Below are positions 1-42,431 of a stretch of DNA of 64,000 nucleotides, piece by piece. The translations under genes were made by a program, and so were the position numbers. Within the stretch, counting starts at the first letter, position 1; each line of letters opens with the position of its first letter. The DNA is taken from positions 167,524,001-167,588,000 of the forward strand of contig OZ024740.1 of assembly GCA_964016885.1 (NCBI GenBank), read 5' to 3'. The notes beneath the pieces are model-generated. The model saw only the letters and a program-made list of their open reading frames with translations, searched no databases and was not told the origin of the DNA. Source of the stretch: Eledone cirrhosa. Taxonomy: Eukaryota.

Positions 1-312
1 ACAACAACATCCAAACAAACAATACGAGAACAAACAATAAGAGAAGTATAAATAAATAAATATATACACAAGCACAATAACAACAAACACATATAAACAC
101 ACACTAGTAAACTAAGATATAATACAATAACCAAACACGAACACACATCAAACACTATGCACACACGCAAACGTATGCGCAGAGAAGACAAAAAATAAAT
201 AAATAAATAAACAGACTAAATAAAGATGGCGGAGGCATACAATACAACAGTAGGAAACATAATAACTCCACTGACGATGTTGCAGATGTGCAACGAAAGA
301 ACTTCGTTAGAC
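1..312 (+). mobile_element. Penelope-type terminal repeat fragment with a degenerate hammerhead core, ending at (TA)n
   Basis: CTGACGA-T-GTTGCA(GATG)TGCAAC-GAAA-GAACTT at 271-304. Similar to the reverse complement of 37150-37400 (AAGATGGCG-AGG...CACTGANGA...CGAAAGAACTT). Stem I no longer pairs. Confidence 0.55.
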
Positions 313-1119
313 TATATATATATATGTGTTTGTGTCTATATCATATCTGTATTTTTGACCGTTGGTCAGTCAATGGTAACATTGAGGACCGAATAAATTA
401 AATTAACCGATATAAAAAATACAGAAGCGAAAACCAACCAAACAGTGAGTGTGTTCTGTTATTAATTCTGGCAATATTATGACACAAATATGACCCTCCC
501 CAATTATAACAATATATATATGTGGGGGGGGTGTATGTATGTCTGTGTGTGTGTGTGTGTGTGTGTGTGTGCGTGTGTGTGTATATGTGTTTGTGTGTGC
601 GTGTGTTTGCGTTTGTTTGAATTTCTGCTTGTATGGGTGTATATGTTTCGCCGAAGATAAACGCAGGCCCAATTATAAACATTATTGCCAATATTATTTA
701 AAATGAAATTAAAATTGTTCAGATAGAAAAACTAGATTTATAAAAATGTCATTTTTTAACCTTGTCTGATTAAAGTTACGAGAGGAAATAAAAACGCATA
801 AATTGCTTCTCAAGACATTATTTTGAATGAAAGCCTAAACTATTATCGTCTGTAGAGATTTCAATTTCTTTCTTAATATATTTATGTAGTTATATATTTA
901 TGTTTGCTTCCATTTAATGCAGGCTGATATTTACAGCAATACCAACAGCAATCTTACACCAACATTAGTCCTAAGAAGAATAGGAAATATTAAAAACAAA
1001 AGGGTGAATAGAAAAATAATCAAAAAGTAAAATAATATGATATATCTGTTCATGCTCTACAAATAAATAAAAACAGAAATGATTCCATTACTTCTATCGC
1101 TAATAATAATAATAATAAT

Positions 1120-1280
1120 GGTTTCTGATATATGCACAAGGCCAACAATTTTGGGGCAGGGGAAAGACGATTAAATTGATTTCAGTGCGTTACTAATACT
1201 TTATTTTATAGACGCCGTAAGGATGAAAGGCAAAGCTAATCTAGGTTGGATTTGAATTCAGAATGAAAAGGACCGTAACT
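1120..1280 (-). mobile_element. tRNA-derived SINE family A, diverged copy
   Basis: Matches the GTAAGGATGAAAGGCAAAG...GGATTTGAA core repeated more than 15 times in the window. Confidence 0.75.
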
Positions 1281-1282
1281 AT

Positions 1283-2870
1283 CTTTATTTGTCACAATGG
1301 ACGTGGGCAGATGGGTGGTTTACAGAAAATTCGTGTAAACAATATAAAGAATATATATAACATAAAAATACAGGTTCCTCAAAAGGTGGGGGAGGACAAA
1401 CCAGGGACAATTCAGGTACCTAACAAATTCTGAACCATGCGACGCTCCAAGTGCATCCGAGGAAGGCACCCCTCTCCTCTCCAAACCAGCAAGCCTTCTG
1501 GTACGTGGTCAGAATAGGCCCATTTAAACGGGCCAACCTCGCAACATTCGCCCACCTTTTAGCAAGTGTACAGTGTGGCAGCACTTCCCTTTCCAAGTGA
1601 AACGTCAAGAAGTTGATGAGGGATTTGCAGAAGAGAAAAGTCCCTGTCCTCAATCATTTCAACCTCGTCCGCCACACAACCTCTTTCGCTACAGAGACCA
1701 AGCAGAGAAAATCTGCCTTCCCATCCGGATCCAAAGAAGGGTGATCTTCGCGATGGACTCGGTAAATAGCCCGATCCGTCTCACACGCCATCACAGCTGG
1801 TCGACATGTTTTTACAAGCTAGTATTGCGCGGACACAGGACGAGTTTCTGGAGAATGGTTCCGTTGCACTGCAAGAATCTTGGACCGGTCCAACCGTCCG
1901 CATTTCTGTGTCTGTAGAATTTATCTCGAACGGGAAGTGCCCTCCTGTAGGACTGCCAACTGAGGTATTTCTGGTCGTTACCCATAGAACCTGAGTCGAA
2001 AGTCCTCCGGATCAGACTGGTCAGATAATCTCCGAGTGCATTGTCAAACTTGTCCACCACTAATCCTCTATAGAGCTCTAGAGTGGAATTTCCACTGATC
2101 GCATTACTCAACTAGCAGAAGGTAGTGAGAGCCTGCTAACATTCAAAATGCCTGGCGCCCAGACTGGATCTCTTTTCGTGACCTAAGACTGTAGCTCAGT
2201 CAAAGAAATAAGCTGTGGAAAGGCCTGTCTCACAAACGGTGACCTCACCTGTTCACCGATTAAGAATATCTGTAGGAGCCGAACGGGGGCTGGGCACGAC
2301 GGTCAGATTGTAAAATATGACGGATGCGATGAACGCGTTCTGCACATCCGTCCGATATTTTATGGAGAGCTTTCTCGCTACCAAATTGTAGGTGAGAGTC
2401 ACGCCCTTGCTCGATGTCTCATATGAATTCTTATCTATTTCGAGGTCTGGTCTGAACCAAATACGGACCACGTGAACATTCGAGCAAAGTGCTGGTGAAA
2501 GGCCGCACACATCTGCCTGGAATCGTTTAACATGCGTTCATCTAGGTTCGTCAAAGGCTGAATCGTGGTTTTATTAACATGCTGTGCGACTTCCACTCGT
2601 TCCCTCATTTCTTAACATACATGCCTTAAACCTGACAATGCAGCATTTGTATTTCGCATTGAAGAAATTATCCAATGTCATTCTCGCCACTAGCACGTCA
2701 GTTGAAATGCCACTTCTAATCCCCTCATCTAATTTATCTACTACCTCCACCTCCTTTCTATTTTTTCATTGCTACTTCTTTACTGAAACCTATTGAAACC
2801 ACTATAACCTCGCTTTTGAGTGCAACCCACCACCTGTTATTGACATCCCCTATCAACTTACACGTTTCGT
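1283..2870 (-). mobile_element. Decayed, internally deleted Tx1/L1-clade LINE fragment (3' part of ORF2 and 3' UTR)
   Basis: Peptides LELYRGLVV, WQSYRRALPVRDKFYRH and SLINFLTFHLER align with the copy at 53740-55600. Confidence 0.85.
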
Positions 2871-2871
2871 T

Positions 2872-39879: not shown

Positions 39880-40715
39880 AGTTAATTATATCGAAAGAGA
39901 AAAGTTGTAGTCAACGCTATTTGAACTCAGAATGTGAATCACTTGAAAAGATATTGAATTTTGCAATAATAATCCACAATAATAGTAAATAATTGTTTCA
40001 ACTTTTTGGCACAAGGCCAGCAATTATCCCAGGGCATTACTAGTGCTTCATTTTAATGCACTGGGATAATTGCTGGCCTTGTGCCAAAAAACCCAAAAAA
40101 TTATTTACTATTATTGTTGATTATTATTGCAAAATGCAATAATAATTGTTTCTACTATTGGCACAAGGCCAGCAATTATCCAGTACATTACTGGTACTTT
40201 ATTTTATCGACCCCGTAAGAATGAAAGGCAAAGTTAACCTCGGCGGCAAAATGCAATAATAATTGTTTCTACTTTAGGCACAAGGCCAGCAATTAACCAG
40301 TACATTACTGGTACTTTATTTTATCGACCCCATAAGGATGAAAGGCAAAGTTAACCTCGGCGGCATTTGAACTCAGACTGTAAAGAGACGTATCTATGCT
40401 AGAAAGCATGGCGTCCAACCCTCTACCGATACTGCCAATTCACCGCCCCATGCAAAATGCAATAATAATTGTTTCTACTTTTGGCACATGGCCATCAATT
40501 ACCCAGTGCATGACTGGTACTTCATGCAATAATTGTTTCTACTTTTGGCACAAGGCCAGCAAATACTCAGTACATTACTGGTACTTTACTTTATCGACCC
40601 CGTAAGGATGAAAGGCAAAGTTAACCTCGGCGGGATTTGAACTCAGAATGGCAAGGGCCGTAACTCTATGCGTCAAAGCATGGCGTCCGACCTTCAACCG
40701 ACGCTGCCAATCCAT
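39880..40715 (-). mobile_element. Cluster of about 6 full or partial SINE family A copies including a foldback
   Basis: Repeated ATGCAATAATAATTGTTTCTACT...GGCACAAGGCCAGC starts. Inverted arms at about 39954-40038 and 40054-40140. Confidence 0.9.
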
Positions 40716-41743
40716 GCAATAATAATAGTAAATAATCATAGTAAAAATATTAGTAGTAACATTGGAAATAACAATAGTAATAAAGTTAGTAAAGTTAGTA
40801 ACTTATAAAGTGTCTGTGTCTCTGTGTAATTTTGTATGTTGTGTGTGTGTGGTTATGTGCATCATATTGATGAATAAGTTGATAAATCGATTGTATGGAA
40901 ACTTATAGCTTATAGATAGTTGGATGAATGTATGCATAAAGTATACAAATCTATTAACAGATGAAGGAGCAAACTGAGAATAGAAAAGAAACGCTTCAAT
41001 ATAAAACCACACAACACGAAACAAGTATAAAACAAACAAACCCCTAACAGTCTAAGTAGGCAGTTCAGTGACAATGCCAAATAGAGTTCTTGCAATAACG
41101 TCCAGTATATATTTTCGTAAAATATTTACTTGTAAAGAAATTACTCAAACAATACCCGAAGGAGTTAAGAAATAGGTAAATAACCGTGCGTCTAAAATCT
41201 TAATATTCACAGGGGGCTTAGAGCTAATGGAGTTTTGGTTGTGCCGTTTATACGACTTTACTAAAGAAATAAGTAGGGTTTCCATTAAGATAATAAAGAT
41301 GCAATTATTTGGTTTGTATTAAAGAGCAATTTCACCTCGTATATGATAACGCAATATTAAAGATATTAGTGCATTATTAGACATGCATGCAGTATATGTG
41401 CAGATGTGCATATATTTATGTGAAATAATGTGTGCATATATATTGTGGCATATATATATTTATATATATATATATATACATATATATGTATATATATATA
41501 TATAGAGCAAACATCACGGACGCTCTATCTCAAAATTATTTTTGAAAAGCATTAGAAATGTGCAACCGGTAAAACTTAAAACCAAAACTGAATACTAACC
41601 AATACTATTACTAAGTTTCACTTATTCCTAATTAAACTATTTTTCACTGTGAACAATTTGTCAGCATTTTCTTTTCCGTTTACCAATATATATATATATA
41701 TATATATATATATATATATATATATATATATATATATATATAT

Positions 41744-42017
41744 AAAAAGAGATGAAATCGAAAATGCAACTGGAGTCTTATTTTTTTTTTAAATATATAT
41801 AATTATTTGGTTCCTTTACCGGTTTCGCAGTTCTCAACTCACCTTTTGAAAAGCAGAAGAACTGCGAAACCGGTAAAGGAACCAAATAAATATATATATT
41901 TAAAAAAAAAATAAGACTCCAGTTGCATTTTCGATTTCATCTCTTTTTCTTTATACTTTCACTCGTGTAGGACACCGCGGTTATTTTTCATTTTGTAAAA
42001 AAAACCTCACTTTCTAA
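41744..42017 (+). mobile_element. Short hammerhead element with a 90-bp foldback, between two (TA)n tracts
   Basis: 41744-41834 is the reverse complement of 41858-41948. Confidence 0.85.
41842..41879 (+). ncRNA. Minimal type-I hammerhead ribozyme with U3-A8 core and all stems intact
   Basis: CCTT TTGAAAA GCAG(AAGAA)CTGC GAAAC CG GTA|AAGG. Stem III is the palindrome ACCGGT. Confidence 0.8.
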
Positions 42018-42275
42018 TATATATATATATATATATATATATATATATATATACAGAAGTAGTTCTACAACAGTAAGTTCACCATTACTGAGAAGAATTA
42101 TGCCACCTTATTCGGATCATCAGGTCGGTTTATACACACACACGCGCACACAAACACACAAACACACACACACACACACATACACACACACACACACACA
42201 CACACATACACACACTCACACACACACACACACACACACACACACACATATATATATATATATATATATATATAT

Positions 42276-42431
42276 ATAGGAACAAGTATGACCCCGACGG
42301 GAAATAGCCGTCGAAACGGCTTGAGCTCTGCCGCGGGGTCATACTTGTTCCTATTTCCCACTCTACTGCACTAAGTATTGAGTACTTTGGTGCGTTATGG
42401 TCCATCTGGTTCCTTACCAGAATCCCTTCGT
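42276..42431 (+). mobile_element. Terminal fragment of the PLE family at 2872-5543 with a 25-bp inverted 5' copy, between (TA)n tracts
   Basis: ATAGGAACAAGTATGACCCCGACGG pairs with 42331-42354. The body matches 36280-36408. Confidence 0.85.

Follow-up and report, generated by a model that had tools for sequence, protein, structure and literature searches.

A Hydra-type Penelope-like element (PLE) with a hammerhead has already been published from an octopus (Hydra-1_Obim of Octopus bimaculoides), in the Hydra account of Craig et al. 2021 (PMC8557442). The Poseidon PLE of Anolis used two internal start sites for reverse transcription in vitro, cut both strands and inserted independently of its ribozyme (Frangieh et al. 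2024, PMC11167929). The role of the PLE hammerhead and the way in which the pseudo-LTR (pLTR) is rebuilt are open questions, to which the genome of the octopus Eledone cirrhosa speaks. We analysed a 64-kb stretch of this genome, referred to as the window, in which an earlier note had listed about 11 type I hammerhead motifs located in (TA)n microsatellites. In our view these motifs are probably the hammerhead-bearing 3′ ends (pseudo-LTRs) of PLEs in (TA)n, belonging to six coding and four non-coding families (A to I, with C2) and generated by the insertion cycle proposed below. Most genomic copies are likely to be inert passengers and short by-products. The copies found in the window are the following.

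1–503, plus strand: 3′ end of a coding Neptune/Nematis-type PLE (family C2); core at 271, first stem I pair broken, predicted cut after 304; the coding element reaches back beyond the window start by more than 4 kb.
2873–5541, plus strand: 5′-truncated, frameshifted Hydra-type PLE (B); reverse transcriptase (RT) 3089–4011, GIY-YIG 4046–4510, U3-A8 core at 5436, 5-bp stem III, damaged stem I, predicted cut after 5521, short tail reaching (TA)n.
7570–8036, minus strand: 1.45 units of a 320–322-nt non-coding head-to-tail repeat (D); U3-A8 core at 7751, 12-nt palindromic stem III, one stem II mismatch, predicted cut after 7715.
17029–17703, plus strand: end of a non-coding unit of about 2,058 nt (E); core at 17451, GAAA changed to TAAA, predicted dead.
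17748–20273, minus strand: 3′ 2.5 kb of a Hydra-type PLE (F); GIY-YIG 19679–20270, 1.7-kb 3′ UTR, core at 17931 carrying A6G, which is predicted to impair it, cut site after 17900; 94% identical to the intact 895-aa copy L241.
20336–20814, plus strand: roughly one 428-nt unit of a non-coding repeat arrayed head-to-tail (A); core at 20605, stems I and II mutated.
26266–26677, minus strand: second copy of A; core at 26566 in the family form, C10.1·A11.1 mismatch, palindromic stem III, predicted cut after 26536.
35540–35795, plus strand: end of a non-coding unit of about 1,285 nt (G); core at 35599, one stem I mismatch, predicted cut after 35662.
35978–36407, plus strand: long-tail copy of another B subfamily; half copy at 36282, CUGA-side core lost by deletion; upstream piece inverted at 35978–36143.
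36423–36725, minus strand: short Hydra-type PLE end (H); core at 36526, predicted cut after 36472; begins at the family 5′ limit (−124), with an inverted arm (36622–36725) beyond a (TA)17 tract.
37002–37734, both arms: end of a coding Neptune/Nematis-type PLE (C), inserted once as a head-to-head pair; minus arm 37456–37002 with intact core 37193, ending at +159; plus arm 37453–37734 with core 37488 (GAAG), ending at +218.
41505–41685, plus strand: degenerate copy of a family-I relative; core at 41542, GAAA mutated.
41737–42018, plus strand: head-to-head stub of a coding Neptune/Nematis-type PLE (I), core at 41846; plus arm 41832–42018 with intact U3-A8 hammerhead, predicted cut after 41875, ending at +141; inverted short arm 41853–41737 ending at +80.
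42278–42431, plus strand: half copy of B from −35 (inside stem II) to +97, without the CUGA-side core, bearing a 25-nt inverted arm.

The 12 full and two half hammerhead sites lie where the earlier note had placed them, on the same strands, and all 14 match genomic families (86–100% identity). Its count of about 11 motifs stands insofar as the sites are real; 37193 and 37488, however, are two arms of one insertion, and additional degenerate copies occur at 41542(+), 41837(−) and perhaps 15005(−). Site 25221 was also inspected and assigned to none of the families, which number ten rather than about nine. The majority form is a type I hammerhead (core, stems I, II and III) in all ten, and agrees with the description of the motifs as PLE-type with a mostly palindromic stem III. 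The core is CUGANGA/GAAA/UH, with C3-G8 in seven families, or its U3-A8 variant in three (B, D, I). Nine of the 12 full window copies retain the core, the changed ones being 17451 (G12U), 17931 (A6G) and 37488 (A15.1G); stem changes are found in 271, 5436, 7751, 20605, 35599 and 36526. Only 26566, 37193 and 41846 match their family form, the other nine full copies being mutated. Stem I of C2 has just 2 bp adjoining the core, and dimer pairing through stem III of C/C2 came out as unstable in the energy model (+1.4 kcal/mol).

The comparison with dinucleotide shuffles that the earlier note had suggested came out in its favour. In the window the descriptor found 4 matches against a mean of 0.12 (maximum 1) in 100 local shuffles; one of the four, 30228(−), was outside the earlier list and belongs to no family. 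A looser descriptor gave 4 against 1.17, and one permitting a core mismatch 16 against 9.75. The mutated copies alone are thus not above chance, and are recognised only through family homology. In 590 kb of evenly sampled genome there were 58 matches against 1.33 in shuffles, and 32 palindromic stems III against 0.07. Stem covariation, also expected by the note, was seen with RNAalifold in 20 sampled relatives of family H: stems I and II were predicted, the core was unpaired, and 7 of 16 pairs had compensatory changes. The Rfam Hammerhead_1 search gave a divided answer. No hammerhead was among the best 150 of 241 rows for the window, those rows being microsatellite artefacts, whereas 18 of 74 scored places in the genome exceeded the cut-off and none did in 14 control genomes. 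An intact family-F copy misses the RF00163 gathering score of 34 bits (29.1 bits, E 1.8e-5), and the window copy of D matched HH9 alone (18.1 bits). Judged from sequence, the motifs are real hammerhead-shaped RNA folds.

The G10.1-C11.1 pair is present in B, C, C2, D, F and I. Family A has C·A at this position, E U·U, G U·U or a 2-nt bulge, and H G·U; because the G-C pair is missing, the activity of these four is uncertain. Among the 58 sampled motifs the pair is G-C in 9, A-U in 21 and G-U in 10, the remainder having other pairs or mismatches. Variants of PLE hammerheads are reportedly treated by Lunse et al. 2017, and the stem II variants seen here may already be described there. Singleton core changes numbered 12 against 20.7 expected (P=0.03), a weak hint that copies are not purely neutral, or else of bias from the search seeds.

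In B, C, C2, F, H and I, long copies continue upstream into RT and GIY-YIG sequences in sense orientation. By these sequences the six families are 3′ ends of coding PLEs, Hydra-type for B, F and H (classed from motifs) and Neptune or Nematis, a joint label, for C, C2 and I. In L241 the 895-aa ORF is flanked by two hammerhead-bearing ends; this single ORF contains RT followed by a C-terminal GIY-YIG, with DKT, a CxCX5C linker, CxxC and CxH. The Hydra motif list was checked on L241, to which the B and H proteins align at 38–55%. Translations of long C, C2 and I copies, read by eye, contain RT, a CX2-5CxxC linker, as well as a C-terminal GIY-YIG with CCHH. Pfam left the PLE RT pieces unmatched and matched GIY-YIG only weakly. 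The earlier note had put two motifs at coding PLE ends, and 271 is a third. It took the others for non-coding mini-elements, a reading overstated for most of them: the units of four families fit it and the other six families do not. A separate SINE-like clade of short I copies was considered and found unsupported, since long and short copies have alleles in common (23 copies).

At E<0.1 the units of A, D, E and G match no PLE protein; none of their ATG ORFs exceeds 74 aa, and no coding partner was found among the best 20–30 copies of each. Head-to-tail arrays, with a hammerhead in each unit, were found for A (two) and D (six); for E and for G a head-to-tail junction was seen at a single locus, where a second full hammerhead is missing. 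Insertions of A and D run across the cut site, and some are longer than one unit. Retrozyme units measure about 150–450 nt, a range that includes A and D and is exceeded by E and G. As their sequences stand, the four families are non-coding head-to-tail units like retrozymes, and they likely borrow PLE enzymes. The D unit occurs in five sequencing runs, none of them RNA among the matches listed, an observation with no bearing on expression.

As the earlier note had claimed, the motifs sit in (TA)n: a (TA)5 tract lies within 300 nt downstream of 52 of the 58 sampled motifs, compared with 29% of random positions. TA is present at both outer ends of 56 of 62 head-to-head B insertions, against 0.12 per end by chance. 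The note's further suggestion, that the islands between microsatellites are ribozyme elements, could be shown for a minority: with a limited library of ends, 115 of the 913 complex sequences flanking (TA)6+ tracts could be assigned to PLE-type ends (control 23), and such ends cover about 9.9 kb (15%) of the window. A window coverage figure of 12,191 nt includes an unrelated SINE and was set aside. The predicted very large population was confirmed as an estimate: extrapolation from the 590-kb sample puts the genome total at about 290,000 motifs with an intact core (bootstrap 180,000–410,000), or about 97 per Mb. This is above the published counts for mussel (~5,000), Xenopus (~9,000) and axolotl (up to 120,000), which were obtained with different descriptors.

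Most families have two 3′ ends past the cut site: +17–20 and +97 in B, +159 and +215 in C, +80 and +140 in I, +58 and +198 in E, +64 and +131 in G, and +53 and +152 in F. Inverted B arms have the short form in 56 of 60 cases. The 5′ ends do not accumulate at the cut site, position 0, where 2 of 121 B arms begin. Ends at fixed sites beyond the cut site suggest that uncut RNA was copied. Copies abutting (TA)n, often head-to-head and ending past the cut site, are the known PLE ‘tail’ pattern, and the insertion traits of endonuclease-bearing PLEs (partial tandem and inverted pLTRs, a tail on one arm, a microsatellite target) are present.

Sharp 5′ limits were found in three families. In B, 68 of 84 tail-selected copies begin at −23 to −49 and only 4 reach −90, the point covering the CUGA-side core. 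In I, 16 of 30 such copies begin at −63 to −76 and one between −77 and −407; in H, 16 of 32 arms begin at −130 to −121, in two subfamilies with differing upstream sequence. The 5′ ends of F, unlike these, are spread out. B and I have a TATA-like box above the limit, at 31 and 30 nt respectively (chance 1–2% per family), and I also has CCAAT about 80 nt above it; one H subfamily has no TATA at −30. G precedes the junction (position −1, a possible cap trace) in 10 of 44 cases (P=0.26). In B, I and H the short copies likely arose as run-off cDNAs and would mark where transcription begins; in B this position would lie inside the ribozyme and so produce the abundant half copies. The direct prediction is that transcription starts at the 5′ limits of these three families.

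In the cycle that we propose, the GIY-YIG endonuclease would cut both strands within a TA tract, and reverse transcription would have two alternative fixed starting points, both downstream of where the ribozyme cuts, on a template that is uncut or religated when copied. The two primed ends would become arms of unequal length, the short one inverted. If synthesis begins close to the transcript's 5′ end, it likely reaches the transcription start and runs off there, leaving stubs of 140–220 nt with a sharp 5′ limit. The ribozyme, dispensable for making stubs, would be kept in active source elements, probably to process tandem or read-through transcripts, and the short palindrome that forms stem III would make it work mostly as a dimer.

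Other explanations were weighed against this cycle. The limits may reflect stalling or snap-back of RT at RNA hairpins, the stubs being ordinary 5′-truncated copies. The G limit coincides with a 13-bp inverted repeat, C has a 5′-end hot spot in an AT palindrome, and the B limit falls within stem II with junction centres that vary between copies; against stalling, the TATA spacing in B and I and the CCAAT in I fit a promoter, the H limit is constant below different upstream sequences, and ends of I are nearly absent just above the limit. We regard stalling as a real possibility, if a somewhat unlikely one. That each of the ten families propagates itself as a non-LTR retrozyme, a short unit that would be transcribed, cut, circularised and copied from circles, is quite doubtful. 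The A and D arrays, and insertions that span the cut site or exceed one unit, are what circles would permit, but tandem genomic templates account for A and D equally well. Moreover, six families continue into RT/GIY-YIG genes, and their short copies are non-tandem with a fixed 5′ limit, which in B seldom leaves room for the CUGA-side core.

A ribozyme population maintained by the host for regulatory roles could be suspected from the very high motif number and the mild deficit of singleton core changes. It is highly improbable, as nine of 12 window copies are damaged, copies diverge by 3–8% from each other as ordinary repeats do, and head-to-head arms would presumably pair within a read-through RNA, which would hide the fold. 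Chance matches in AT-rich repeat DNA, to which the 1.6-fold excess of the one-mismatch descriptor in the window might point, have practically no standing: they are refuted by the excess in the 590-kb sample, the compensatory changes in family-H relatives and the Rfam matches present in this genome and absent from 14 control genomes.

The proposed cycle can be extended by a joint reading, which we hold to be rather unlikely, in which the stubs would be PLE strong-stop DNA made at the capped RNA start. In B the promoter would lie within the ribozyme, with TATA in the 5′ strand of stem II and the start in loop II; the 5′ copy of the mRNA could not then cut itself, while the 3′ copy could. A terminal repeat of 41–48 nt would remain, onto which the run-off cDNA would jump. 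We found no paper joining Penelope pLTRs to strong-stop DNA in the literature outside subscription journals and bioRxiv supplements. If true, this reading would give the PLE hammerhead a defined job and explain pseudo-LTR regeneration, and the genome would be a very large natural hammerhead library, with many non-G-C 10.1-11.1 variants. The genome offers thousands of insertions per family with mappable ends, together with an intact 895-aa Hydra-type element. Short head-to-head insertions would give long RNA hairpins if transcribed, which, speculatively, may bear on RNA editing.

Families B, F and H resemble the Hydra clade, as its account in PMC8557442 describes it, in the C-terminal GIY-YIG, DKT, CxCX5C linker, CxxC, CxH and LYRDD, the (TA)n targets and the hammerhead near the 3′ end. 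They differ in RWR (L241) for RWK, in unit length (3.1 kb in B, 4.7 kb in F; ‘generally <3 kb’ in the clade), and in hammerhead sequences distinct from that listed for Hydra-1_Obim; copy numbers and 5′ limits were not found in that Hydra account. The pLTR hammerheads of metazoan PLEs, as presented by Cervera and de la Pena 2014 (PMC4209133), likewise have type I topology, a palindromic stem III, an extra base after A9 (here C, C2) and the U3-A8 variant (here B, D, I), and occur mostly as single dispersed copies, with head-to-head pairs 100–700 bp apart. That account gives 2,000–9,000 per genome, obtained with other descriptors than our estimate, and a highly conserved G10.1-C11.1, in contrast to the sampled motifs here.

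Families A, D, E and G share with the animal non-LTR retrozymes, as portrayed by Cervera and de la Pena 2020 (PMC7229834), non-coding head-to-tail units, a type I hammerhead, low GC and a proposed PLE dependence, and the sizes of A and D also fit the account of Li, Clavereau and Pollet 2026 (bioRxiv 10.64898/2026.07.22.740005). In contrast, unit length is greater in E (2,058 nt) and G (1,285 nt), insertions have mostly one or two units with inverted arms in (TA)n, and the families are known here from DNA alone. In the descriptions of Poseidon and of inverted pLTR structures (PMC11167929; Arkhipova et al. 2013, PMC3846280), as seen or inferred here, two RT starts define the tail, both strands are cut and extended at AT-rich targets, the ribozyme is dispensable for insertion, the pLTR has TATA and an initiator, and only one arm bears the tail. 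Tails are 27–140 nt here against 30–40 in those descriptions, which attribute solo pLTRs to recombination or deletion, whereas run-off synthesis would account for them here. The arms of one insertion nearly always use different start sites in the genome (56 of 60), while no strand difference was seen in vitro (PMC11167929). The elements described here belong to a known kind; what is new is the family members, and the sharp 5′ limits are less expected.

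The hammerhead motifs listed in the earlier note were confirmed at their places in the window. A strict descriptor (full core, stem I of at least 3 bp, four pairs in the first six positions of stem II, paired stem III) found four matches in the window, whereas the mean over 100 local dinucleotide shuffles was 0.12. The four are motifs 26566, 37193 and 41846 of that list and one at 30228 on the minus strand, which has no family. With one core mismatch permitted, 16 matches were found in the window and 9.75 in the shuffles, and the excess was nearly gone. Because this mutated-core descriptor was barely above the shuffles, damaged copies were judged by homology instead.

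Ten DNA searches of the 3.0-Gb Eledone cirrhosa genome each yielded between at least 365 and at least 3,465 first-look candidates. For each of the ten families (A, B, C, C2, D, E, F, G, H and I), the majority sequence of the 20-30 top copies was a type I hammerhead, and all 12 full and both half sites of the window were assigned to these families. The family form is preserved in three window copies; six others have changes in the stems and three in the core. The intact form accounted for between 8/25 (D) and 19/20 (I) of the top copies, G being left unscored. Seven families have the C3-G8 pair and three (B, D, I) have U3-A8. Six families (A, D, E, G, H and I) have a palindromic stem III of 6-12 nt and F has a near-palindromic one; in C and C2 it consists of two pairs flanking an AA, and in B of 5 bp with a 9-nt loop. 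In the family-B hammerhead (5455-5521 in the window) stems II and III draw on one short sequence, so the GAAA core can be locked in an alternative 6-bp hairpin, the fold predicted for the half copies. Two further hammerhead-like remnants, with cores at 15005 (14880-15060, minus strand) and 25221 (25200-25330, plus strand), have no assigned family. With Rfam Hammerhead_1, 18 of the 74 scored candidates elsewhere in the genome passed and none did in 14 control genomes; an intact F copy scored 29.1 bits, below the cut-off of 34.

The genome was sampled in 59 evenly spaced 10-kb stretches (590 kb). The strict descriptor found 58 matches, compared with 1.33 in 15 shuffles, and a palindromic stem III, which it does not require, was present in 32 sampled motifs, compared with 0.07 in the shuffles. 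Scaling from the 590 kb gave an estimate of 288,000 intact-core motifs genome-wide (181,000-410,000 by bootstrap over stretches, 26 of the 59 containing matches), which bears out the very large ribozyme-motif population proposed in the earlier note. Published counts, obtained with other descriptors, are about 2,000 + 1,300 in Schistosoma, 4,000 in coelacanth and 9,000 in Xenopus (PMC4209133, in part), and about 5,000 in mussel and up to 120,000 in axolotl (PMC7229834, in part). The commonest intact type of the sample, about 25 of the 58 matches, is a relative of family H that is absent from the window (for example sample loci L264:3376, L279:4037, L293:4757 and L310:374). Its stem I is 8 bp long, it carries A10.1-U11.1 or G.U, its stem III is AT-rich and palindromic, and it comprises several subfamilies that covary; the G10.1-C11.1 pair was present in only 9/58 sampled motifs. 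Covariation was also seen with RNAalifold: for 20 sampled copies of this type stems I and II were predicted with the core open and 7/16 pairs compensatory. As these copies had been picked by a descriptor demanding pairing, they show the variation to be compensatory but cannot show pairing to be unexpected.

Upstream of the hammerhead, long copies of families B, C, C2, F, H and I carry GIY-YIG sequence in sense. Reverse transcriptase (RT) was also reached upstream in B, C, C2, F and I; in H the endonuclease alone was reached. A long family-F copy elsewhere on the contig, and other repeats of the window, are as follows.

Elements described in the text (window positions unless a contig is given; C1 is contig OZ024740.1)
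C1:201235100-201241500, minus strand: L241, a long family-F copy, 895-aa ORF flanked by two hammerhead-bearing ends
31331-33501, minus strand: LINE lying between (ATT)23 and (TAT)28, with RT (Pfam RVT_1) and C-terminal zinc-finger/nuclease part
53740-58000, minus strand: decayed Tx1-like LINE with endonuclease, RT and zf-RVT
58800-63900: LINE pieces adjoining (CATA)n arrays, present two or three times, with C2H2-like fingers
About 17 places, e.g. 14255-14435, 34239-34418 and 39989-40714: SINE-like repeat of ~180 nt, tandem at 40129-40714

The LINE at 31331-33501 resembles an R4/Dong-type element and seems to target a trinucleotide repeat. A piece related to the Tx1-like LINE was seen at about 1500-2700.

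L241 is apparently an intact Hydra-type Penelope-like element (PLE). A long Asn-rich insert separates its RT from the endonuclease, its 3′ UTR is 1.7 kb long, and window positions 17748-20273 are 94% identical to its 3′ part. Its protein carries DKT, LYRDD, CxCX5C, CxxC and CxH, the marks of the Hydra clade (PMC8557442, in part), and is similar to the proteins of B and H. The supplement of the same paper already includes Hydra-1_Obim, an octopus Hydra element that prefers (TA)n and carries a hammerhead; the PLE proteins of this genome show likeness to it. The long family-B copy L254 has a frameshifted ORF between two ends 3.1 kb apart, and the copy at 271 extends more than 4 kb beyond the window start as a decayed coding element. 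Read by eye, the linker of C, C2 and I is of the form CX4CxxC, and their endonuclease has cysteines and histidines like those of Neptune and Nematis. Families A and D form head-to-tail repeats with units of 428 nt and 320-322 nt, respectively; at one locus each, the tail of E (unit 2,058 nt) and of G (1,285 nt) continues into a next unit. No PLE protein match at E<0.1 and no ATG ORF longer than 74 aa was found in A, D, E and G, which fit non-autonomous PLEs or non-LTR retrozymes (PMC7229834; bioRxiv 10.64898/2026.07.22.740005; both in part). The window holds a real, dense set of PLE hammerheads, which the earlier note partly misread as independent mini-elements; six families have coding PLE sequence upstream. 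The set comprises new examples of kinds already known, namely PLE ends of Hydra and Neptune/Nematis type and retrozyme-like non-autonomous units. The available part of the repeat annotation of Octopus vulgaris (PMC13282606) does not contain the word ribozyme.

Copies picked by the sequence downstream of the cut site alone end sharply upstream. In family B 90 loci were collected, and after removal of five self or duplicate loci and one lacking a tail match, 68 of 84 end at -23 to -49 (counted from the predicted cut site), 2 at -53/-55, 4 reach -90 or beyond and 10 have no stem III anchor. In family B, with 33 matches in 590 kb, half hammerheads of this kind are the most frequent form. In family I (n=30) 16 copies end at -63 to -76, another 7 exceed 400 nt and the remaining 7 end elsewhere; 9/17 inverted arms end at -69 to -75. 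In H, 16/32 arms end at -130 to -121, a position common to two subfamilies. The sequence TATTTAT lies 31 nt above the limit of B, within the 5′ strand of stem II, and TATAAAA and CCAAT lie 30 and 80 nt above that of I; we take them to be TATA-like boxes (B, I) and a CCAAT motif (I). For a base taken at random, such a box lies 26-33 nt above it in 1-2% of these regions. Family I also has what are presumably E2F-, CCAAT- and E-box-like motifs. Motifs that are presumably YY1- and NRF1-like sites were seen 85-190 nt upstream of the cut site in C2 (225-240), C (37240-37290) and the family-G locus L157.

We consider it fairly probable from these positions that the short stubs of B, I and H are copies ending at the transcription start, where reverse transcription would run off. 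The rival explanation is that stalling of the RT gave the stubs their 5′ limits. H fits run-off from the start poorly, the limit of G coincides with a hairpin, and the 5′ ends of F are scattered from -48 to -110 and beyond. An extra junction G, the trace of a copied cap, was present in 10/44 cases (P=0.26 against base composition). Pseudo-LTRs (pLTRs) with TATA and initiator motifs have been described (PMC3846280, in part), and Drosophila Penelope has an internal TATA-less promoter (PMC2377424, in part); a literature search, with subscription journals outside its coverage, returned nothing on Penelope pLTR strong-stop. Short and long I copies have alleles in common (23 copies aligned), so the stubs arise repeatedly from the same sources.

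Energy models predicted that stem III closes in the monomer for B and D and is absent from it for A, C, E, F, G, H and I; stable self-duplexes were predicted for the latter families with the exception of C. Such motifs are described as cleaving as dimers at low activity (PMC4209133; PMC6765202; both in part). The hammerhead is conserved across ten diverged families, which means that it is under selection in the source elements. In genomic copies core variation was 0.6% and flank variation 1.4%; singleton core changes, corrected for base type, showed a mild deficit (12 versus 20.7 expected, P=0.03). Since neither the upstream promoter nor a same-strand partner is present in the stubs, most of them are likely silent. 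The motif count, the 5′ limits and the stem II variants, which Lunse et al. 2017 may cover, deserve follow-up.

The (TA)n setting described in the earlier note holds in the genome sample: (TA)5 lies in the 300 nt downstream of 52/58 sampled motifs, compared with 29% for random positions, and upstream of 27/58. Among the 913 complex flanks that (TA)6+ tracts have in the sample, at least 115 were recognised as element tails facing the tract, compared with 23 in the reverse orientation. TA is present at both outer ends of 56/62 head-to-head insertions of family B, which points to insertion inside a TA tract. At 35978-37734 and 41505-42431, ends of different PLE families are piled up in successive TA tracts, as if every insertion left fresh targets for later ones.

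Beyond the cut site, two 3′ ends are preferred in every family. Among head-to-head insertions identified by their long tail, it is the short arm that is inverted in 56/60 (B) and 16/17 (I) cases; this pattern is the PLE tail. An Anolis PLE studied in vitro cuts both strands of AT-rich DNA and extends them, starts at two internal sites, and inserts no less well when its ribozyme is dead (PMC11167929). The 5′ ends of our copies do not gather at the cut site, thus the copied RNA was whole across it, and this copying of uncut RNA agrees with the insertion of the Anolis element carrying a dead ribozyme.
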